Part shown: positions 6,154 to 17,903 of the stretch, in pieces
Layout: the number at the start of each line of letters is the position of its first letter
How positions within the stretch are numbered: position 1 is the first letter of the stretch
The notes under the pieces: generated by a model
What the model was told of the DNA's origin: nothing
Database searches by the model: none
The model's input: only the letters and a program-made list of their open reading frames with translations
Program-made: the position numbers and the translations under genes
Assembly: GCA_947503575.1 (NCBI GenBank)
Contig: CANNDZ010000003.1
Span: 159,100 to 223,099, forward strand
DNA length: 64,000 nt
DNA from: an uncultured Kordiimonas sp.
GTDB taxonomy: Bacteria; Pseudomonadota; Alphaproteobacteria; Sphingomonadales; Kordiimonadaceae
Reading direction: 5' to 3'

Positions 6154-7851
6154 TTAATGCGTTGTTGGCTTGGTAGCGCTTGGCTTGGCTTTGGGCGCTC
6201 GTTTCGCTTTTGCAGCCGTTGAAGCCGAAGCCTTAGTAGCCGCTTTTTTACCATTTACGGATTTAGCGCTTGCTGCCTTGCTTGGGGTCCGGGCAGATGC
6301 CGCCTTCGCGGGGGCTGCTTTGGCAGTGCCTGATTTAGCCCCGTTTGCTTTCGCTGGAGCTTTTGGGGTTTTGGGAGGGGCTTTTGTTGCACCTTCTGAA
6401 ACAGGCATTTCCTTACCCGCGGTCAAGGGGTCACCGGCTTTATCTGCCGCTGCCTGCAGTGCCGCGAATTCCTCGACGATAAGATCAGCGATATCCTGGA
6501 CATCTGGCACAGCAATTTTACAAGCGATCAATCCAAAATCGAGCCTGTCGACATAGCTTTGCAGGGTGATATTAAGTGCACATCCATGTGTCGCGATGGA
6601 AACAGGGAATTGCGCAACAACCTTGCTGCCAGCAAAATACATATATCTGCGTGGACCTGGCACATTGGATATGGTCACGTTGATCGGTGACGGCATCATG
6701 TTTACAAGGTCCGTCCGGCTTTGCATCTGCGCCATAGCAGACACAATAATAGGCGCACCAAAGAACACATAATCCTGTGGAATTACGTCCTTAACAGCGC
6801 CCAACTGCTTTTTGGATGCTTTTGTGCTTTCCTGTACAGACCGCAACCGCTTCATGGGGTCGGCAATATCGGTGCCCAGGCCGCAGGTCATACCTGTGAC
6901 CTGATTGGTATTGGCGGCATCGCCAAATTCCCGCAATGAAACCGGCACCGCCGCCACAAGCGAGTCTTCGGGCAATTCTTTGTGCCCATCTAGATAACGG
7001 CGCAAAGCACCGCCACAAATGGTGAGCACCACGTCATTCAGCGTGGAACCCGTTTTCTTCGCCAAAGCAATTGTTTCCGGCAACGACAGCGACTGAGCGC
7101 CGTAAGCACGTTGTTTCTGGATACGAACGTTAAACCGTGTTTTAGGCGCAGGCTTCAGGTTTTTGGCCAAGGCACTGCGGTCTTCAAAGGCGACTTTAGC
7201 GAGTGAGCCGACGGCTTTCACCATGTCTGGCACCTTTTTAACCACATCCACTTGCTGCTGCAGGAAACGACCATATGAACTACCCAGCAGCTCAAACATG
7301 CCTGGTTTTTCGGCCTGCAGCCGGATTTTATTCTTGGGTAAAGGCGGGCGCGGCACAGGTGCCCGGTCAGAAATAATATCCATAACGGCAATGCCGGCAC
7401 CACCGTCAACGCTGGCGTGATGGCTTTTTGTATAGAGCGCAAAACTGCCTTTTGGTAGCCCGAACTCTTCGTCTTCCAGGCCTTCGATGACATAAAATTG
7501 CCAAAGCGGCCGATCCCGATCCAGGGTCAGCGAATGCAGTCCCTGAATAATCATCCGAAGCTGTTCCACATTGCCTGGTGCAGGCAAGCTGGAGTGTTTG
7601 ATATGATAATCAAAGTCGATAGTGTCAGCGTTAACCCACACAGGATGATCGACATAAAAAGGGGTCGCCATCAACTTGCGGTGGAAAGAGGGAATCTCAT
7701 GCGCGCGCTCAGCGATCTGGGATTTCAGTGCTTCGTAGGGGTTGATACCTTCCTCCGGCGGTTCACATATCAACAAAGCAGAGACATGCATCGGTGTCTC
7801 GTCTGTTTCCATGTATAGAAAAGTAGCGTCCAAACCGGTCAATTTATGCAT
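6154..7851 (-). CDS. Wax ester synthase/diacylglycerol acyltransferase (WS/DGAT) with a Lys/Ala/Pro-rich C-terminal tail
   Basis: N-terminus LTGLDATFLYMET..PMHV, catalytic HHASVDG (HHxxxDG), NVTISNVPGP, LNITLQSY; ~90-aa basic low-complexity tail. Confidence 0.93.
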   Translation of the reverse strand: MHKLTGLDATFLYMETDETPMHVSALLICEPPEEGINPYEALKSQIAERAHEIPSFHRKLMATPFYVDHPVWVNADTIDFDYHIKHSSLPAPGNVEQLRMIIQGLHSLTLDRDRPLWQFYVIEGLEDEEFGLPKGSFALYTKSHHASVDGGAGIAVMDIISDRAPVPRPPLPKNKIRLQAEKPGMFELLGSSYGRFLQQQVDVVKKVPDMVKAVGSLAKVAFEDRSALAKNLKPAPKTRFNVRIQKQRAYGAQSLSLPETIALAKKTGSTLNDVVLTICGGALRRYLDGHKELPEDSLVAAVPVSLREFGDAANTNQVTGMTCGLGTDIADPMKRLRSVQESTKASKKQLGAVKDVIPQDYVFFGAPIIVSAMAQMQSRTDLVNMMPSPINVTISNVPGPRRYMYFAGSKVVAQFPVSIATHGCALNITLQSYVDRLDFGLIACKIAVPDVQDIADLIVEEFAALQAAADKAGDPLTAGKEMPVSEGATKAPPKTPKAPAKANGAKSGTAKAAPAKAASARTPSKAASAKSVNGKKAATKASASTAAKAKRAPKAKPSATKPTTH

Positions 7852-9089: not shown

Positions 9090-9731
9090 CTATTTTGACG
9101 TTTTTAACATTTTGTCGCGGAATTCAGTCAGCAAGGTCAGAAATTCATCTCCCCCGTCAACAACATAGGGCGTGAGCTGACTTATAAGACCATAAACACC
9201 ATTATGGATAGAAACCGGCGTTGATACGTCGCTGTCCAACAAAACCTGATACGTGGGCCAATAGGTAAGCTGCAGAGCAAATCGTTCCGCCATCTGGTCC
9301 GCTTCAATTTGGGAAATCGAAATAAAACCCGTTCGGTCAAGAGTGCCGATAATTGACGCCATGGTTGTCACTTTGTGCTGCACAAGACGGCGGAACCGGG
9401 ACTGCAAATCAGGATATCGTTCCAAAATGGATTGAAGATTACGGTAGAAAAACCGGAAATCTGCGATTTCTTCAAACAGGATATAAAAATACACCCAATT
9501 GTCCGATAGTTCCAAAGGCTTGTCGATCGGCGCCGTCAGCACCATCCGAAACTCTTCTTCAAAGTCGACAAAAAGCTGATGGATAATCGGGTCTTTGCCC
9601 TTGAAGTGATAATAGAGGTTGCCGGGGCTTATATCGAGCACGTTGGCAATGTCGACAGGCGTCACATTCTGCTCACCCTCTTCATTAAAGAGCTGCAGGC
9701 TATATTGCAAAATCCTGTCTTTGGTCTTCAT
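9090..9731 (-). CDS. phaD: TetR-family regulator, PhaD-like
   Basis: MKTKDRILQYSLQLFN...ISPGNLYYHFKGK closely resembles Pseudomonas PhaD (MKTRDRIL...ISPGNLYYHF, recalled from memory); located in the pha cluster. Confidence 0.75.
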   Translation of the reverse strand: MKTKDRILQYSLQLFNEEGEQNVTPVDIANVLDISPGNLYYHFKGKDPIIHQLFVDFEEEFRMVLTAPIDKPLELSDNWVYFYILFEEIADFRFFYRNLQSILERYPDLQSRFRRLVQHKVTTMASIIGTLDRTGFISISQIEADQMAERFALQLTYWPTYQVLLDSDVSTPVSIHNGVYGLISQLTPYVVDGGDEFLTLLTEFRDKMLKTSK

Positions 9732-9758: not shown

Positions 9759-10232
9759 TCACGACTTGGTAGCGGTTTTACTGGTTCGCCTGGCGGGTGC
9801 TTTTCCCGAAGTCTTACTGGCAGTCTTTACGGCAGCTTTTCTGGGGGCTGGCTTCGGCTTGGAAACAGCAGCCAAAATGGCGTCAATTTTTTGCTCCAGT
9901 ACGTCCAGTCGTTCTTCGATACGCTCGATGTTTTCCTGCTGGTCCGCCGTGGCTTCCGATATACCAAGCGCCGCTTTCATCCGCTCCATCCGGTCTTCGA
10001 CCTGAGCGCGCTGTTTTTCAGCAAATTCCGGCACGTAAGCTTTGGCAACCCCGGCAACTTTGCCTTCAAGTTCTTCGCCTTTGCCTACCAGGTCCTCAAA
10101 AATCTTCGTCGTCTCCCGACCCATTTTTGCATAAGCCTCGGTTGCATCCCCAACAGCACGACCATAGGCACCAATACCCGCCAACCAAATCTTGCGGGCA
10201 ATATCTTTGTCTTTTCTGGTTTTGTCGGTCAT
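9759..10232 (-). CDS. Phasin family protein (PhaF/PhaI-like) with coiled coil and short basic tail
   Basis: ARKIWLAGIGAY and FEDLVGKGEELE match the PhaI/PhaF granule-binding motif; ATG at 10232 has a GGAGG RBS (ORF track start 10244). Confidence 0.85.
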   Translation of the reverse strand: MTDKTRKDKDIARKIWLAGIGAYGRAVGDATEAYAKMGRETTKIFEDLVGKGEELEGKVAGVAKAYVPEFAEKQRAQVEDRMERMKAALGISEATADQQENIERIEERLDVLEQKIDAILAAVSKPKPAPRKAAVKTASKTSGKAPARRTSKTATKS

Positions 10233-10284
10233 TTCAGCCTCCACAAATCATGACCCGCCTTATGGCTTGTCATCACATCAATAT

Positions 10285-10339
10285 CACGTCGAGCACGGTC
10301 TATGTCGAACGCCGTTATGTCGAATACAGTTATGTCGAA
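10285..10339. repeat. Three 15-bp-period direct repeats (TATGTCGAA core) plus one degenerate copy
   Basis: TATGTCGAA at 10301, 10316 and 10331; CACGTCGAG at 10285. Confidence 0.85.
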
Positions 10340-11172
10340 TAGAGGGCATCCTGGGCGTAATCATCAGCGTGGTCGTCGAGGTACCGTGCGATAATCGGCA
10401 CAACTTGATGAGCACGAGAAACAGCAAACAAATGCCCGCCGCCCTTTACAATATTCAGGTCTGCACGGGGTATAGCCGCCTTCAAAATACGGGAATTGGC
10501 AAGCGGCACAATATTGTCCCGATCACCGGACATAACCAACGTCGGTTGTTTTAAAAACGGCAGCCTGTGCAAACTTGTCCACCCAGCCATTGCCATCAAT
10601 TGGTACAAGTAACCGCGCTTGGTCGGCGGGATAATACGGTTCTTGTGGCTAACGGCGGTTTTATCCGCTGCGTCCCCATACAGGGTTTCAAAGTTCTTGA
10701 GCATATAGTCTGTGTCAATATAACGGCGCGGGTTACCCATTTTACTCAGGGCACTGAAGTTACCCGGCACCATTGCCATACCGGCACTTGTTGCGAGCAA
10801 TACCAAGCTTCTAACCCGGTCCGGGTTACTAATGGCAAATTGCTGTGCGGCACCGCCGCCCCACGACACACCCATAACGTCCACATCAGCGTAGCCAAAC
10901 TCATCCAGAAGCTGATTTGACCATTTAACAATCGTAGAAGGCCTGTATGGCACGGTTGGTGCGGGGGACCCGCCAATGCCCGGCATGTCAAACACAATAA
11001 CATCCGAGCGTTCGCTCATCATTTCACCGAGCGGGGCAACCAGTTCAAGGTTGGCACCAATACCATTGAAAAACATAATCGGGCGTTTGTTACCCCCGGC
11101 GCGCCACCGGGCGGTGCGCAACGTCTGACGGCCTACCTTGACAAGGTTAACCTCTGGCTCGATAGCGGCCAT
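10330..11172 (-). CDS. phaZ: Intracellular PHA depolymerase (Pseudomonas PhaZ type)
   Basis: FNGIGANLEL, FDMPGIGGS, lipase box GVSWGG, GWTSLH, GDRD, GGHLF; ATG at 11172 has a GAGGAG RBS. Confidence 0.9.
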   Translation of the reverse strand: MAAIEPEVNLVKVGRQTLRTARWRAGGNKRPIMFFNGIGANLELVAPLGEMMSERSDVIVFDMPGIGGSPAPTVPYRPSTIVKWSNQLLDEFGYADVDVMGVSWGGGAAQQFAISNPDRVRSLVLLATSAGMAMVPGNFSALSKMGNPRRYIDTDYMLKNFETLYGDAADKTAVSHKNRIIPPTKRGYLYQLMAMAGWTSLHRLPFLKQPTLVMSGDRDNIVPLANSRILKAAIPRADLNIVKGGGHLFAVSRAHQVVPIIARYLDDHADDYAQDALYST

Positions 11173-11305
11173 ATATACTCTCTCCTCAATATGATGCGCC
11201 TTATGCTTTGTGCTGACTGCAGCACCGCGCATCTCTTCCGCCCCAAACGCTCCCAACGCCTGTAGCGGTCGCTTCCCTACTTTTATAGATAAGACTTTTT
11301 AGGAC

Positions 11306-12988
11306 TTATCCAAATACATATGTGCCCGGCGCATCGGCGAGCGGCTTGTATTTCGTGTTACCAAGCCGGTTTGGTGCCGCTTTTTCCTTGCCGGACCTCT
11401 CCTTCAGCCACCCGGACCAAGGCGTCCACCAGGAACCATCCTTCAACTCCGCGCCCGCCATCCAGTCGTCTGCGCTGCCGCCCATACCGTCCGGATTATG
11501 AAAATATTTCGCTTTCGGATTGCCGGGTGGGTTCAGCAGAGACTGGATATGCCCGCTATTGGACACGAAGAATTCGTTTTTACCGCCAAGCAGCTTGGAT
11601 GTGCGGAAACAGGCGCGCCACGGCGTTATATGGTCTGTAACCCCAGCAACAATAAAGCTATCGTGCGTTACCTGCCCCAAATCAAGCTTGTGCCCTTTGA
11701 AGTCCACAGTACCAGGGTTGGCAAACGGTGCCGTCATGTAGCTATCCAGAAAATCTGAATGCAAACCTGCAGGCAAATTCGTAGTATCATTGTTCCAGAA
11801 CAAAATATCAAATGCGGGCGGCGCATCTCCCAGCAGGTAATTGTTGACCACATAATTCCAGATCAGATCGTTCGGGCGCATCCAGGCAAAAGTCCGCGAC
11901 AGATCGTCCCCCGACAAAATACCCTTTTGCGCCGAGCGCGCGCGCGCCAGTTCAAGCGTTTCTTCCGACACAAGCGCCCCGACCTCGCTGTCTTCCTGGC
12001 GTGGGTCAAGCACGCATACCTGGAACGTTGATGAGTTTACGCGGTCGTCGCCCATCGCCGCCAAATGGCTCAAGAGCGTTGCAACCGTTATGCCCCCCGA
12101 ACAGGCACCGGAGACGTTAATTTTTTTGGACCGGGTAACTTTCATGACGGCGTCCATCGCTTCGACAACCGCATCAATGTATGTTTCCAGATGCCAGTCT
12201 GCCTGCTCTACGCCGGGGTTGCGCCAGCTTATGGCGAACAGCTGTATGCCTTGCGACAACAAAAACCGGAACAGGCTTTTGTCAGGCGTAAGATCAGACG
12301 CGTAAAATTTGTTGATCTGCGGCGGGATGATCATCAGCGGAATTTCATGCACTTTATCTGTCGTCGGCGTGTATTGGATCACTTCTAGCACTTCGCTGCG
12401 GAAAACTACCGAGCCTGGTGTTGTGGCCAGGTTTTCACCAACCTTGAACGGCCTGCTGTCGACCTGAGATGGGATGCCGATCCCGTTGACCATGTCATTA
12501 TAGGCGTTTTTCAGGCCGGCGATAATGGACATACCCCCCGTTTCATAGAGGCGCTTCATTGCCGCTGGGTTGCCGATCAGCGAGTTGGTGGGCGCAAGCG
12601 CATCTGTCACAACATCAAGGATGAAATGGGCACGGGCGCGGTCCATCTCATCAATTTCAGCTTCACTCAGCCAGTTATTCAGGTTTTCCTTCATTGCCAT
12701 CCAAGACTGCATACCCCTGCGGTACAAAGGGTTGAAGGCCCACGCGCGGTCTTGAAAGCGGCGATCTTTCGCATGGGGAGCATATTCGCTGTCCCCTTTC
12801 ACGATGTCGACCATATCCTTACCGTAGTTCAGGAAATGCTGACCAAATGTGGCTGGATTGGTTGCGGCTTGCTTGAGAACAACGCCTAATGACTTCACAA
12901 GCTCTGACCGGTGAACGCCAACAATTGGGCTGAAGGCCGTTGTTGCTTCTGCGGCGCGCTCGCCGACGGATTTTTTGGACCGTGCCAT
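11306..12988 (-). CDS. phaC: Class II poly(3-hydroxyalkanoate) synthase
   Basis: 560 aa, PPQINKFY, catalytic GACSGG (C296), WMRPNDLIWNY, DHITPW, SGHIQS, APGTYV. Confidence 0.95.
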   Translation of the reverse strand: MARSKKSVGERAAEATTAFSPIVGVHRSELVKSLGVVLKQAATNPATFGQHFLNYGKDMVDIVKGDSEYAPHAKDRRFQDRAWAFNPLYRRGMQSWMAMKENLNNWLSEAEIDEMDRARAHFILDVVTDALAPTNSLIGNPAAMKRLYETGGMSIIAGLKNAYNDMVNGIGIPSQVDSRPFKVGENLATTPGSVVFRSEVLEVIQYTPTTDKVHEIPLMIIPPQINKFYASDLTPDKSLFRFLLSQGIQLFAISWRNPGVEQADWHLETYIDAVVEAMDAVMKVTRSKKINVSGACSGGITVATLLSHLAAMGDDRVNSSTFQVCVLDPRQEDSEVGALVSEETLELARARSAQKGILSGDDLSRTFAWMRPNDLIWNYVVNNYLLGDAPPAFDILFWNNDTTNLPAGLHSDFLDSYMTAPFANPGTVDFKGHKLDLGQVTHDSFIVAGVTDHITPWRACFRTSKLLGGKNEFFVSNSGHIQSLLNPPGNPKAKYFHNPDGMGGSADDWMAGAELKDGSWWTPWSGWLKERSGKEKAAPNRLGNTKYKPLADAPGTYVFG

Positions 12989-13072
12989 ACGTATTCCCTA
13001 TTCCTGAAAGACGCAGATGGCGCCTCATGTACTTCCTGCGCCATTGTGTCGAAGAAAAATCGGTTTCGCTAG

Positions 13073-13100
13073 AAAAAAACAAAGCGACCGAGGTCGCTTT
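13073..13100 (-). terminator. Intrinsic terminator downstream of the PhaF-like gene
   Basis: Minus strand AAAGCGACC-TC-GGTCGCTTT followed by GTTTTTTT. Confidence 0.8.
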
Positions 13101-13143
13101 GAGTTTCTGCCAGGTACAAAGCCCACGGCAGAATAGAGATAAT

Positions 13144-13193
13144 GGCTGACAGACCTACTCAGGGGAGGGGGGAAGGGACTAAGCCTGTCAGCC
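13144..13193 (-). ncRNA. Candidate 3'UTR RNA hairpin with a C-rich (anti-SD-like) loop
   Basis: Minus strand GGCTGACAGGCTTA / TAGGTCTGTCAGCC 14-bp stem (includes two G-U pairs) around the loop GTCCCTTCCCCCCTCCCCTGAG. Confidence 0.35.
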
Positions 13194-13226
13194 TATTAGA
13201 CCCGAAGGACTAATAATTCTTTTTAC

Positions 13227-13844
13227 TTATGACTTTACGTCAGTTTTTGCTTCAACTGCAGCAGCTTTAGGGTCTACTTTCGGCGCTGCCGCTTTTGGCG
13301 CAGCTGCTTTAGGAGCGGCCGCTTTTGGAGCAACAGCTTTCTTCGGCGCAGGTGCAGCCTTTTTAACCGCTGGCTTTGCGACCGCTTTCTTCGCAACTAC
13401 TTTTTTAGCAGCAGCTTTTTTCACAGCAGGTTTTGCAGCTGGTTTAGACGTATTCACTTTCCGGCTCAGCGCATTTACTGTTTTCGTCAGCTTTGCAACT
13501 TCGGCAGACAGCTCTTCCACACGGTTGTTTCCACCAGCGCGGTTAAACACTTTGTTGCCAGCTTCTGAAACTTTTTCGCTTACTTCGTTGAAGCGTGCAG
13601 TCACGTCGGTAACGCGAGGCTCTACGTAACCGCGAACTTTTTCGATGTTACCTTGGGCCATGCCTTCAACTTCTTCGCCTTTTTGAACCAGGTCTTCAAC
13701 CAGTTCATCGCGACCGTTCATAAGCTTGTTCACGCCTTCTTGGGCGAAATCAAAAGCTGATTTGTGAGCGCCGAGCCATGCAAGGTAACCCTGACGGTAA
13801 GCGCGGACGACTTTAGAGTTTTGAATGTTGTCCATAAGTGCCAT
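13227..13844 (-). CDS. Phasin-like protein with histone H1-like C-terminal tail (PhaF architecture)
   Basis: N-terminal RQGYLAWLGAHK...EDLVQKGEEVE, heptad RVEELSAEVAKLTKTVNAL, then a KPAAK/AKKAV/PKAAA repeat tail; ATG at 13844 with AAGGA RBS. Confidence 0.75.
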   Translation of the reverse strand: MALMDNIQNSKVVRAYRQGYLAWLGAHKSAFDFAQEGVNKLMNGRDELVEDLVQKGEEVEGMAQGNIEKVRGYVEPRVTDVTARFNEVSEKVSEAGNKVFNRAGGNNRVEELSAEVAKLTKTVNALSRKVNTSKPAAKPAVKKAAAKKVVAKKAVAKPAVKKAAPAPKKAVAPKAAAPKAAAPKAAAPKVDPKAAAVEAKTDVKS

Positions 13845-13927
13845 GATCAATTCCTTATCAAATATAATCGTGTTTTGCGTGAGCTTGACGCTTTTGCTTG
13901 TGCGCGACGCTCGTTTATCCTGAGATC

Positions 13928-13964
13928 AAAGTAGCGGGGAAAATTAGAAAGCGCATACTAGAGC
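13928..13964 (-). promoter_or_regulatory. Promoter with the conserved 21-bp box
   Basis: TTAGAAAGCGCATACTAGAGC at 13944-13964; minus strand ATGCGC-17bp-TACTTT. Confidence 0.6.
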
Positions 13965-14003
13965 GTTATTTTCCCCGATACCTTTTGTTGGTCGGGTGTC
14001 TGA

Positions 14004-14234
14004 TTACTCAGCTGTGCGACCGAAAAAACCGTTCACACGCTCACGAGCGCCGGTTTCAACCGCTTCACCTTTTTGAACCAGATCTTCGATCAATTCATCG
14101 CGACCGTTGATCAGCTTGTTCATGTTATCTTGCGCAAGCTCGAAAGCCGCTTTGTGAGCGCCGAGCCACGCCAAGTAGCCCTGACGGTAAGAGCGAACAA
14201 CCTGTGAGTTCTGAATGTCTTCCAAAATAGCCAT
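14004..14234 (-). CDS. Short phasin-like protein (76 aa), paralog of the N-terminal domain of 13227..13844
   Basis: YRQGYLAWLGAHK and NGRDEL(I/V)EDLVQKGE shared with the downstream paralog; AAGGA RBS. Confidence 0.75.
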   Translation of the reverse strand: MAILEDIQNSQVVRSYRQGYLAWLGAHKAAFELAQDNMNKLINGRDELIEDLVQKGEAVETGARERVNGFFGRTAE

Positions 14235-14331
14235 GATATAGTCCTTTCAATCGTCTCTTTGTTTTCAATGTAACCAACTGACTGTGTCGATTTGACTTGG
14301 TGCGCCGGTTGGTTCGTTAACCTTGAGATGG

Positions 14332-14368
14332 AATGTAAGGAAAAACTTTAGAAAGCGCATACTAGAGC
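14332..14368 (-). promoter_or_regulatory. Promoter with the identical 21-bp box
   Basis: TTAGAAAGCGCATACTAGAGC at 14348-14368; minus strand ATGCGC-17bp-TACATT. Confidence 0.6.
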
Positions 14369-14568
14369 AGAATTATTTATAAAATATAATTATTTCAGAT
14401 ACTTGCGGAATTTTACTGGCTTGTTCCATGTTTCTATCTGGGCGATACCCTCTCAAAACCGGTCAGATGACCAGCACCGGAGGCACCAATTCAAACGAAG
14501 GTTTACAGGAAAGCGCTTTGACATCGAAAGGCGGGTTGCTAGGTTTTCAATCGCTTGTCGGGCAAGGC

Positions 14569-14597
14569 AAAACAAACGTCACAGAAAACAAACGTCA
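14569..14597. repeat. 16-bp-period tandem duplication
   Basis: AAAACAAACGTCA at 14569 and 14585. Confidence 0.8.
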
Positions 14598-14612
14598 ACG
14601 TTAGGGGATATC

Positions 14613-17600
14613 ATGCAACGCGCTCTCACCTTTTTCCTATCTATATTTATGGTCAGTTCCAGCATTGGCGCCACAGACGGGTATTATCGTTCCCCTACCT
14701 TCCATGGAGACACGCTTGTCTTTGCTTCAGAAGGAGACCTTTGGCGCGCCCCTGCAGGCGGTGGCAAAGCCTACAGATTAACCACGCACCCTGAACTGGA
14801 ACGGGCCCCCAAACTTTCGCCAGATGGGCAATGGGTGGCATTTACCGCCAATTATGATGGGGCGATAGAAGCGTATGTGATGCCCATAGAGGGCGGTAGC
14901 CCAAAGCAGATAAGTTTTGACAGCAGCATTGTGTGGGTTAGGGGTTGGTCCCCTGATGGTCGCGTGCTGTACACAAGCGTAAACCGCAGCGGGGCAACCC
15001 CGCGCATTATGCGGCTTGTTAACCCACAGACACTGGAAACCGAGGAACTGCCGTTATCCGGCGCGACAAACGGCACCTTCACAGAAAATGGAGGCCAGTT
15101 TTATTTCAGCCGCTACGGCATGGAAATGAATAATGACAATGCCAAGCTGTACCGCGGGGGCGGCATGGCACAGCTTTGGCGCTTCAATACCCGCCGGCAA
15201 CGGGAAGCGGTTCGCCTGGCAGCCGATTTCGGTGCACCGCTGCGCCAGCCAATGTGGTGGAACGACAGAGTGTATTTTGTCTCGGACAAAAGCGGTAGTG
15301 GCAACATCTGGTCCGTGGATGAAGACGGCAACAGCCCCCGTCAACATACAAATCATGATGGTTGGGACGTGCGGGAAGCGTTTCTTCGTGACGGCAAAAT
15401 CATGTACCGCCTTGGGGCAGATATTCGGCTTTATGACACTGGTTCAGGCGCGGATAACGGCATCGAACTGGAACTTACCAGTGACCTTGATGCCAGCAGG
15501 GTCCGTTGGATTGAAAAGCCGCTGGACTATCTGACATCTGCACGGCTGGGTGGCGGTAAAGACCGTGTTGCCCTAACCGCACGGGGGAAAATTGCACTGG
15601 CCGGGCAAGGCCCGATGCGGCTTGTTGATTTCCGTCTGCCGGGCGGCGCGCGGGCCCGCAACGCCATTGCCAGTGCCGACATGGACTGGATTTATGCAAT
15701 TGTCGATAATGGCGAATTTGGTGAAATATGGCGCTATTCATCTAATGGCATAGGCGACGGGGAACAGCTGACCAGCGGCGCGAACACCAGACGCTGGCAG
15801 ATTTATGTATCCCCGGATGGTCAGTCTATTGTGCATAGTGACGGTGAGGAGCGCTTGTGGCTGCTGGATATCGAGTCCAAGGAAAGCACTCTCATAGAGC
15901 AAGTCAACAACGCACCTGGCAATGATGTCTTTGGTGGCGTCGCCTTCTCGAACGATGGCAGCTTGATTGCGTATCATCGAGGTGATCAACGTGGAAACTT
16001 CGGCATCTACTTGTACGACACAGCCACGGGAAGACGTGAAAAGGTTACCAGTTCAAAATACAATAGTTTCGCTCCCGCAGTCTCTAACGACGGCAAATGG
16101 CTTTATTTCCTGTCTGACCGCAACTTCAGGGCAACCCCGTCATCTCCGTGGGGTGACCGCAACATGGGGCCTCAGTTTGATAAACGCACAAAAATATATG
16201 CGTTAGCGCTTGTACCGGGCGAGAGGTTCCCCTTCCAGTCCAACGATGAGTTGGTCGAAAGCGCGGAAGATAAAGACGAGGATGACAAGGAAGAGGCGGA
16301 CCAGGACGAAGAAGATAAGCCCAAAGAGCCAAGCGTGATTTGGGATGGCCTGGCCAGCAGGCTGTATGAAGTACCCGTCAGCGCTGGCAACTACAGCGTT
16401 TTAGCGAGCGCCGATAGCTTCCTCTATATGCTCGACCGAAATGGTGGCGGGGCAGCCGCCATCAAAAGCCTCAAGATTGATAATAAAAAACCCAAGCTTG
16501 AAACCTTTGCGTCAGGTGTGCGTGATTTTGACCTGTCGGTGGACGGGAAAAACATCTTCTTTTCCAAGGGCAGCAGAAATTCAGGGCAGCTTTATATCGT
16601 AAAAGCCGGAGCAAAGGCCCCAAAGGATTTATCGGATGCTCAAATCCAAACCAAAAGCTGGAAGTTGGCAATTGATCCATCAAAGGAATGGCCGCAAATC
16701 TTTGTTGATGCCTGGCGTATGCACCGCGACTATTCCTTTGATCCCAAGATGCGCGGTCTTGATTGGACGGCCATAAGGGCTAAATACGAACCTTTGGTCA
16801 GCCGGGTTGGACACAGGGATGAACTGCATGACCTGATTGGCCAGATGACCAGCGAGCTTGGTATTCTGCATTCCCAAATTGGTGGTGGCGACCTGCCACA
16901 AGACCGTGAAGCCGGGACAGATGCATCGCTTGGTGCCGTCTTCGCGGCTCAGGGGGAAGGCATGCAGATCACGCACATCTATCAAACCGAGGATGACCTG
17001 CCGTCCTCGCGCGGGCCACTGGCCCTGCCCGGCGTAGACGCAGCGGTGGGTGATGTGTTGTTGTCCGTTAACGGGCAACCGGTTGCCGACCAGCGGGCGT
17101 TGCAACTCGCCCTGCGCGAACGGGCGGGTGAGCAAGTCCTGCTTGAGCTAAAGCGAGGCAGCGACGAACCGCATCATGTGATCGTAAAGCCGGTGCCCAT
17201 GCGCACGCACACCATGCTCCGCTACCATGACTGGGTGGAAAACAACGCTCAAAAAGTGCGGGCTGAACACGGGGATACTATTGGTTACCTGCACATCCGC
17301 GCTATGGGCGGCAATGACATTGCTGCCTTTGCCCGTGACTTTTACGAGCACTGGGATAAAGACGGCATCATCATTGATGTGCGCGGAAACCGGGGCGGCA
17401 ACATTGACAGCTGGCTGATCCAGACTTTCCTGCGCAAAGTCTGGGCCTTCTGGCATTTCAATGGCCGTGCCGTACCATACGGCAATATGCAACAAACATT
17501 CAGGGGTCATGTGACGGTTCTTATCGACCAGTCCACCTACTCTGACGGCGAAACCTTCGCCGCGGGCATGAAAGCGCTTGAGCTTGCCCCGCTTATTGGC

Positions 17601-17903
17601 ACCCGCACTGCGGGGGCTGGTATCTGGCTGTCTGATCGTAACCGACAGTCTGATGGCGGCATTGCCCGTATTGCAGAATCAGCGCAGTTTGGCATGGATG
17701 GCCGCTGGCTAATTGAAGGCCGGGGCGTTTTGCCAACGATCGAGGTAACCAACCCGCCATTTGCGGAATACAACGGCGAAGACCTGCAATTGCAAACAGC
17801 AATTGACTATTTGCTGGACAAAATTCGCAGCGAACCAATCCCACCACTTCAGGGGCAACCTCTGCCGCCGGTCGGGTCCTATGGCCGGGATATTGTCGAA
17901 TAA
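14613..17903 (+). CDS. Tricorn protease homolog (peptidase S41, PD40 propellers and PDZ)
   Basis: Signal peptide MQRALTFFL, LVFASEGDLW, PD40 repeats, acidic linker, QMTSELGILH, PDZ, DVRGNRGG, catalytic TYSDGE, GTRTAGAG; start refined to the ATG at 14613 (AGGGG RBS). Confidence 0.93.
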   Translation: MQRALTFFLSIFMVSSSIGATDGYYRSPTFHGDTLVFASEGDLWRAPAGGGKAYRLTTHPELERAPKLSPDGQWVAFTANYDGAIEAYVMPIEGGSPKQISFDSSIVWVRGWSPDGRVLYTSVNRSGATPRIMRLVNPQTLETEELPLSGATNGTFTENGGQFYFSRYGMEMNNDNAKLYRGGGMAQLWRFNTRRQREAVRLAADFGAPLRQPMWWNDRVYFVSDKSGSGNIWSVDEDGNSPRQHTNHDGWDVREAFLRDGKIMYRLGADIRLYDTGSGADNGIELELTSDLDASRVRWIEKPLDYLTSARLGGGKDRVALTARGKIALAGQGPMRLVDFRLPGGARARNAIASADMDWIYAIVDNGEFGEIWRYSSNGIGDGEQLTSGANTRRWQIYVSPDGQSIVHSDGEERLWLLDIESKESTLIEQVNNAPGNDVFGGVAFSNDGSLIAYHRGDQRGNFGIYLYDTATGRREKVTSSKYNSFAPAVSNDGKWLYFLSDRNFRATPSSPWGDRNMGPQFDKRTKIYALALVPGERFPFQSNDELVESAEDKDEDDKEEADQDEEDKPKEPSVIWDGLASRLYEVPVSAGNYSVLASADSFLYMLDRNGGGAAAIKSLKIDNKKPKLETFASGVRDFDLSVDGKNIFFSKGSRNSGQLYIVKAGAKAPKDLSDAQIQTKSWKLAIDPSKEWPQIFVDAWRMHRDYSFDPKMRGLDWTAIRAKYEPLVSRVGHRDELHDLIGQMTSELGILHSQIGGGDLPQDREAGTDASLGAVFAAQGEGMQITHIYQTEDDLPSSRGPLALPGVDAAVGDVLLSVNGQPVADQRALQLALRERAGEQVLLELKRGSDEPHHVIVKPVPMRTHTMLRYHDWVENNAQKVRAEHGDTIGYLHIRAMGGNDIAAFARDFYEHWDKDGIIIDVRGNRGGNIDSWLIQTFLRKVWAFWHFNGRAVPYGNMQQTFRGHVTVLIDQSTYSDGETFAAGMKALELAPLIGTRTAGAGIWLSDRNRQSDGGIARIAESAQFGMDGRWLIEGRGVLPTIEVTNPPFAEYNGEDLQLQTAIDYLLDKIRSEPIPPLQGQPLPPVGSYGRDIVE

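Follow-up and report, generated by a model that had tools for sequence, protein, structure and literature searches.

The phasin PhaF of Pseudomonas putida has been modelled as three parts: a long amphipathic helix that binds polyhydroxyalkanoate (PHA), a tetramerising zipper of 22 amino acids (aa), and a DNA-binding tail (PMC3574117). PhaI (~139 aa) retains a coiled coil, by which it forms hetero-oligomers with PhaF (PMC7590123, PMC3574117). The motif WLAGLGI has been termed conserved in all PhaF-like phasins. MinP is a 48-aa piece engineered from the N-terminus of PhaF. Its granule binding is no weaker than that of the whole domain, but it lacks full phasin activity, for which its authors blame the missing zipper (PMC7267194). 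We analysed a 64,000-nucleotide (nt) stretch of DNA ("the window") from an uncultured Kordiimonas sp. (GenBank assembly GCA_947503575.1, contig CANNDZ010000003.1, positions 159,100 to 223,099), in which two tandem genes, here termed L and S, lie upstream of a class II-type PHA synthase gene (phaC). Homology places L and S in PF05597 (PhaF/PhaI type) as diverged, lineage-restricted members, not in a new family. Searches of the literature on PHA or phasins in Kordiimonas gave nothing specific. Homology, architecture, duplication history, purifying selection, uniqueness and conservation of an upstream 17-bp box, and co-occurrence with phaC were computed in the present analysis.

L (13227..13844, minus strand) is a 205-aa PhaF-like phasin, counted from the ATG at 13844. 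S (14004..14234, minus strand) is its 76-aa paralogue and consists of the N-terminal helix alone, without zipper or tail. The open reading frame (ORF) of L is listed as 13227..13850 (207 aa, TTG start at 13850). The true start is likely the ATG at 13844, giving 205 aa, because AAGGA sits 7 nt before it, at the same spacing as in S. The two AAGGA ribosome-binding sites (RBSs), read from the sequence, are at 13852..13856 for L and at 14242..14246 for S (7 nt before the ATG at 14234), both on the minus strand. Over 74 aa, L and S share 66% identity and 86% similarity (E 3e-36), far beyond chance, and have in common RQGYLAWLGAHK...NGRDELxEDLVQKGE. An earlier interpretation made from the letters of the DNA (hereafter the sequence-only reading) had described a tandem paralogous pair with a shared core, and these coordinates and values bear it out. 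The collinearity of S with L stops at about residue 76-80, where EKVRGYV of L is aligned with ERVNGFF of S.

The family assignment was examined with several methods. PF05597 (matches counted at E<=0.01) was matched by all 18 L-type sequences scanned, i.e., the window's own L and 17 relatives, with a best E of 2.5e-6. The close relatives P0003 and P0021 carry precomputed PF05597, as do 20 of the 21 distant phmmer matches to L outside the close family. Comparison by hhalign of the L family with 21 PF05597 proteins gave 99.3% probability (E 1.5e-20, columns 10-90), and the S family gave 92% (E 5.7e-7). The motif is YLAWLGA in L and S and WLAWLGA in most relatives, one or two substitutions from WLAGLGA, and the N-domain of L aligns to the PF05597 core WLAGLGA...LVxxGE. 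A search of 1.84 billion representatives with the S-family profile recovered only 32 proteins; these included the bridging motifs WLAWLGANK, WLVYLGTAG, WLAYIGAYG and IWLAGIGAYG.

The window also encodes a third phasin (9759..10244, minus strand), a canonical PF05597 protein (E 7e-12) with a short basic tail, which carries KIWLAGIGAYG...DLVGKGEELEG. L was 30% identical to this protein (E 7e-10), and the alignment was ungapped over the motif region: RQGYLAWLGAHK...EDLVQKGEEVEG of L aligned to RKIWLAGIGAYG...EDLVGKGEELEG of the third phasin, so that YLAWLGA stands column-for-column with IWLAGIGA. The sequence-only reading had judged the core to resemble the third phasin only loosely. That judgement has to be revised; it arose because L is sub-threshold and S has no Pfam match. 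The three PF05597-type ORFs of the window are the only recognisable phasins of the genome. PF09361 (Phasin_2), which had also been named for comparison, matched neither L nor S at E<=1 and nothing else in the genome, and PhaR (PF07879) was absent from the whole genome.

Three points count against the placement in PF05597. L alone scored 21.7 bits (E 2.2e-4), under the gathering cut-off of 28.8 bits. S alone had no match in a Pfam hidden Markov model scan. The 21 PF05597 comparison proteins (set A2) were drawn from matches to L, so that the hhalign comparison is only partly independent; the Pfam labels of these proteins are independent. The score against TIGR01837 was 22.1 (cut-off 94.7). The sequence-only reading had inferred an independently evolved, unannotated family converging on a PhaI/PhaF-like module. 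Such a family would account for L and S of the window falling under the Pfam and NCBIfam cut-offs, for the public records of S orthologues ("hypothetical protein", Kordiimonadaceae), and for the long branch (2.07 substitutions per site) that separates the S+L clade from other PF05597 phasins. However, the third-phasin alignment, the PF05597 scan and the hhalign result together refute separate origin at the domain level. The near-WLAGLGA motif and the bridging sequences argue in the same direction, as does the Kordiimonas orthologue of L, which is already called "phasin family protein" at the National Center for Biotechnology Information (NCBI). We consider a separate family very improbable. 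The term "unannotated" thus holds for S and fails for L.

Some apparent relatives were discarded. With the S profile, the giant ankyrin-repeat proteins P0056, P0062 and P0071 gave matches up to E 1e-23 over 12 repeats. They were rejected as S homologues: the ankyrin consensus "...RDEVVELLIKEGADVEAK" has a chance likeness to "GRDELIEDLVQKGEAVE". A search of genome contigs for related loci returned a single Nocardia match, which was spurious and caused by low-complexity tail patterns. Two public records, P0058 and P0086, were noted as well. In P0058 (217 aa), a dehydrogenase-like N-terminus is followed by the last 48 residues of an S orthologue, probably through a chimeric assembly or gene call. 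An L orthologue is labelled "archaellum component FlaC" by one source, a misannotation.

L is divided into three regions. The N-terminal long helix (residues 1-102; 13539..13844, minus strand) is a putative granule-binding domain that contains YLAWLGA (residues 20-26) and LVQKGE. AlphaFold2 (AF2) run with the family alignment predicted a helix at residues 11-102 (predicted local distance difference test [pLDDT] 66-87), a break at GGNN, a second helix at 107-132, and disorder at 133-205. The second helix (13449..13526, minus strand) is a Val/Leu zipper of three heptads, with a/d positions V109, L112, V116, L119, V123, L126 and V130; it gave a weak match to the Pfam LPP leucine-zipper model (E 8e-4). 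A PDB sequence search with L found no solved homologue, and its matches, all over the second helix, were only designed coiled coils and bZIP zippers. The K/A/P/V tail (residues 133-205; 13230..13448, minus strand; pLDDT <50) is a putative nucleic-acid-binding region. The tail (74 aa) consists of 38% A, 27% K, 14% P and 12% V and has a net charge of +17. Matches of the tail to HC2 and histone H1-like models (E about 2e-4 to 6e-4; HC2 in 8 of the 18 sequences scanned) were weak, below all cut-offs and compositional only. The heptad stretch and the K/A/P tail that the sequence-only reading had assigned to the longer protein were therefore both recovered. The AF2 models of L and S are single extended helices, with a predicted template modelling score of 0.23 for L. 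S was predicted as one helix over residues 11-75 (pLDDT 85.5).

Orthologues of L range from 154 to 205 aa and differ mainly in the tail. The tail-coding DNA of the window contains a 15-nt tandem repeat (13277-13340) of ~4 copies that encode PKAAA units. The length differences suggest gains and losses of tail repeats (expansion/contraction). A 7-residue insertion, RVTDVTA, occupies residues 77-83 of L (~13596-13616) and corresponds to one extra heptad in the long helix; it occurs in a subset of L orthologues, with RFSDVTA or RINEATA in relatives.

L is similar to PhaF of P. putida KT2440 in its three parts: a helix with a WLAGLG-type motif, a zipper of ~22 aa, and a disordered, H1-like K/A/P tail. 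It is also similar in its setting, which includes an adjoining class II-type phaC, phaZ and a PhaD-like TetR gene, and in having its own promoter. Several differences were found. The N-domain of L is diverged (WLAWLGA/YLAWLGA plus an extra AHK/ANK segment) and sub-threshold for Pfam alone. L is shorter (205 vs. about 260 aa), and in its tail a mixture of KKAxA/PKAAA units takes the place of regular AAKP/KPAA repeats. The L gene is upstream of and co-directional with phaC, whereas the PhaF gene is downstream and divergent. The host of L is an alphaproteobacterium of the Kordiimonadaceae, and the PhaF-like function of L is putative.

S is similar to PhaI of P. putida in being a short paralogue without a tail, whose gene has a regulated promoter of its own and lies immediately upstream of the gene for the tailed protein. 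However, S (76 aa) stops before the zipper, and so is without the coiled coil of PhaI. The likeness to PhaI/PhaF proposed by the sequence-only reading thus extends to the layout (short tail-less gene first, zipper and K/A/P-tailed gene second, own promoters, beside a class II-type phaC-phaZ...phaD-like cluster) and ends at the architecture of S. On this comparison S is not a PhaI in architecture, nor would it be a PhaI orthologue, because it arose by a separate duplication inside the Kordiimonadaceae. Judged from homology and the tree described below, the pairing of a short and a tailed protein is a parallel re-invention of the Pseudomonas PhaI/PhaF arrangement, in which the duplication is independent and the domain is not. 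A layout so far studied in pseudomonads, PhaF with a short companion, has evidently been re-created in a marine alphaproteobacterial lineage, which points to selection for pairing a tethering with a non-tethering phasin.

S resembles the MinP tag more closely than it does PhaI. Like MinP / Bi1, it has an N-terminal helix with a hydrophobic WLAGLG-type motif, no zipper and no tail. MinP is man-made and 48 aa long, whereas S is natural, 76 aa long, under purifying selection, ends in a conserved VNGFFGR of its own, and is a putative granule binder. The suggestion that the 76-aa member is a minimal granule-binding tag therefore fits as regards a minimal N-terminal-helix protein, and granule binding itself is putative. 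As a counterpart of MinP, S is a possible small affinity tag for PHA beads and a test case for a phasin helix that acts without oligomerisation.

The distribution of both genes was determined in 25 genomes of the genus (G000-G024; the window genome is G000). L was present in nine of them. These are exactly the genomes that have this phaC at >=78% identity (9/9, vs. 0/16 otherwise), and the class II-type pha cluster is thus accessory in the genus (9/25). In G016 the only PhaC is a distant one of class I-like type (33% identity). S was found in seven of the nine L-bearing genus genomes; L without S occurs in G003, G007 and Kordiimonas sp. SCSIO 12610. All S copies formed one clade (support 100/99) in a maximum-likelihood tree built from the N-domain; this clade was nested within an L clade that leaves out G003 and G007 (98/98), and the branching of S paralleled that of L. 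A second tree set S and L against 21 other PF05597 phasins, among them the third phasin of the window but no Pseudomonas sequences, and in it S plus L were monophyletic (100/97).

At the DNA level, the similarity between S and L extends from the 17-bp box to about codon 60 and then fades, and the two start codons are 390 nt apart. Because of this extent and spacing, we read the pair as a partial tandem duplication of promoter and N-domain. The simplest reading is that S was born once, within the genus, by a duplication of ~390 bp that took in the promoter box and approximately the first 75 codons of L. A genome of the same order (G030; PhaC 52% identical) has phaC and phaZ without flanking phasins, and yielded no ancestral arrangement.

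A truncated copy left by partial tandem duplication could be a decaying, functionless remnant, and the absence of S from three L-bearing genomes (G003, G007 and Kordiimonas sp. SCSIO 12610) would be in keeping with this. The ratio of nonsynonymous to synonymous substitution rates (dN/dS), however, was 0.02-0.22 across S orthologues, with dS up to ~1.4, similar to the values for the N-domain of L, and on this basis we rejected the pseudogene explanation. S is 74-76 aa in eight genomes. Nine of the ten S-type protein clusters are 75-76 aa; the tenth, P0055 (102 aa), resembles a truncated L-type protein. The C-terminal end VNGFFGRTAE is conserved, with VNGFFGR(T/A) kept among orthologues, and S has its own RBS and promoter box, which are likewise kept. 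These findings indicate that S is a real gene under purifying selection; that it should be a mere remnant is hardly credible.

A 17-bp box, TAGTATGCGCTTTCTAA, was found upstream of both genes on the minus strand and is a candidate operator/promoter element. The copy at 13944..13960 ends 99 nt upstream of the L start. The second copy, at 14348..14364, ends 113 nt upstream of the S start and was co-duplicated with the N-terminal coding part. The box forms an imperfect inverted repeat (TTAGnAnGC/GCnTnCTAA), and a conserved ...TCTCAAGGTTAACGA stretch comes after it. There are just two copies in the 3.6-Mb genome. The box was present with <=1 mismatch upstream of 19/19 S and L genes examined (11 genomes), and was identical in 16; its position is roughly 100-190 nt upstream of the genes, and it also occurs in L-only genomes. 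A sigma-70 consensus scan of 12900-14450 found no promoter. Since the genome has no PhaR, the obvious candidate binder of the box is the TetR-family regulator encoded in the PhaD position (9090..9731, minus strand; PF13972, E 5.8e-29); this PhaD-like protein is probably the one that reads it. P. putida PhaD activates the phaC1 and phaI promoters via operators of 6-bp inverted half-sites (PMC7590123). The conserved, genome-unique box provides a handle on phasin-gene regulation outside Pseudomonas.

From these results we infer granule binding, DNA or RNA binding, competition between S and L, and the identity of the regulator. In the model that we favour, L and S probably act on the PHA granules that the neighbouring class II-type PhaC produces. 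The long N-terminal amphipathic helix of L, with its YLAWLGA and LVQKGE motifs, would lie on the granule surface, and the three-heptad Val/Leu zipper would oligomerise L. The disordered K/A/P/V tail (+17) would bind nucleic acid and tie the granules to the nucleoid, such that they may be shared out at cell division. S, as the granule-binding helix alone, would coat the granule as a filler that neither oligomerises nor tethers. By analogy, because MinP binds granules, S would occupy the granule surface and dilute L; this competition for the surface would tune the strength of the tether. Duplicate copies of the 17-bp box would drive S and L, probably read by the PhaD-like TetR. We hold it probable, with confidence that is fair rather than high, that L and S form a pair of diverged PF05597 phasins specific to this lineage and meant for the granules of the adjacent PhaC, with L tethering, S as a competing filler, and both under the 17-bp box. 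A narrower proposal is put forward tentatively: that S is a natural 76-residue mini-phasin without zipper or tail, co-regulated with L by the same unique operator, and that the S:L ratio sets the valency of granule-nucleoid tethering as a competitive cap.

Three observations do not sit easily with this model. The cluster encodes a WS/DGAT with a tail similar to that of L, so that L and S could coat a body of wax-ester or mixed lipid instead of PHA. RNA binding and activation of translation, in place of DNA tethering, can be functions of K/A/P tails (PMC12818456). The 17-bp box was not found at the phaC promoter, which differs from P. putida, where PhaD has operators at both PC1 and PI (PMC7590123).

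The first of these observations leads to a different account, according to which L and S coat wax-ester/triacylglycerol droplets or mixed PHA/lipid bodies, like apolipoprotein-type or MLDS/TadA-type proteins, and the basic tails of L, the third phasin and WS/DGAT tie the droplets to the nucleoid. The WS/DGAT gene (6154..7851, minus strand), whose product has a K/A/P/S/T tail of ~90 aa, belongs to the same co-directional cluster and is kept in the related loci L014 and L015, and weak Apolipoprotein A1/A4/E matches occurred in 17 of the 18 L-type sequences (best E 2.8e-5). The apolipoprotein scores, however, were far below threshold (24 vs. 90 bits) and typical of any amphipathic helix. L and S are homologous to PF05597 PHA phasins, and their genes are immediately upstream of phaC, with which they co-occur in 9/9 genomes. 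We regard the lipid-droplet account as unlikely.

The RNA-binding property of K/A/P tails and the common box allow another account, in which L acts mainly in regulation by binding nucleic acid (as an RNA-binding activator of translation or as a DNA binder of the AlgP/H1-like kind) and S is its antagonist or partner, e.g., by titrating L or the PhaD-like regulator. The L tail is similar in composition to AlgP, histone H1-like and Hc2-type K/A/P proteins, with the difference that in L it is fused to a phasin domain. It carries KPAA/KPAV/PKAAA units; P. aeruginosa PhaF uses KPAA motifs of its disordered tail to bind mRNAs and is an activator of translation (PMC12818456), and PhaF interacts with PhaD and affects pha transcription (PMC7590123). 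A single unique operator-like box common to S and L would suit such a role. The L tail, however, has only one exact KPAA, the N-terminal phasin helix is the most strongly conserved part of L and S, and the strict linkage to phaC points to a granule role first. A chiefly regulatory function is accordingly rather doubtful.

The family finding extends a known family and does not overturn current understanding; it is useful for annotation and unsurprising to a specialist. The diverged motif (WLAWLGA) and Pfam scores under the threshold show that this clade escapes current models, and its short member is left as "hypothetical".

The remaining genes of the cluster follow L and S in the order S, L, phaC, phaZ, third phasin, TetR, alpha/beta hydrolase and WS/DGAT, all co-directional on the minus strand. 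PhaC (11306..12988) is a class II-type PHA synthase (TIGR01839, E 8e-211, under the curated cut-off), and phaZ (10330..11256) encodes a medium-chain-length-type PHA depolymerase (TIGR02240, E 4e-72); both are on the minus strand. An intrinsic terminator with a 9-bp stem followed by seven T (TTTTTTT) is located between L and phaC (13080..13101, minus strand). The same cluster order was found in two related assemblies. The closest named relatives are Kordiimonas sp. SCSIO 12610 and metagenome-assembled genomes of the Kordiimonadaceae.

Upstream of S and divergent from it is a gene for a Tricorn-type protease of ~1100 aa (14403-17903, plus strand). This neighbour is also present in the related assembly L014; it is not present in Kordiimonas sp. 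SCSIO 12610, which is without S. Three proteins of the cluster have basic, low-complexity C-terminal tails: WS/DGAT (~90 aa, K/A/P/S/T), the third phasin (34 aa, +11) and L (74 aa, +17). The presence of three such tails hints at a common nucleic-acid-tethering or condensate theme for storage bodies.

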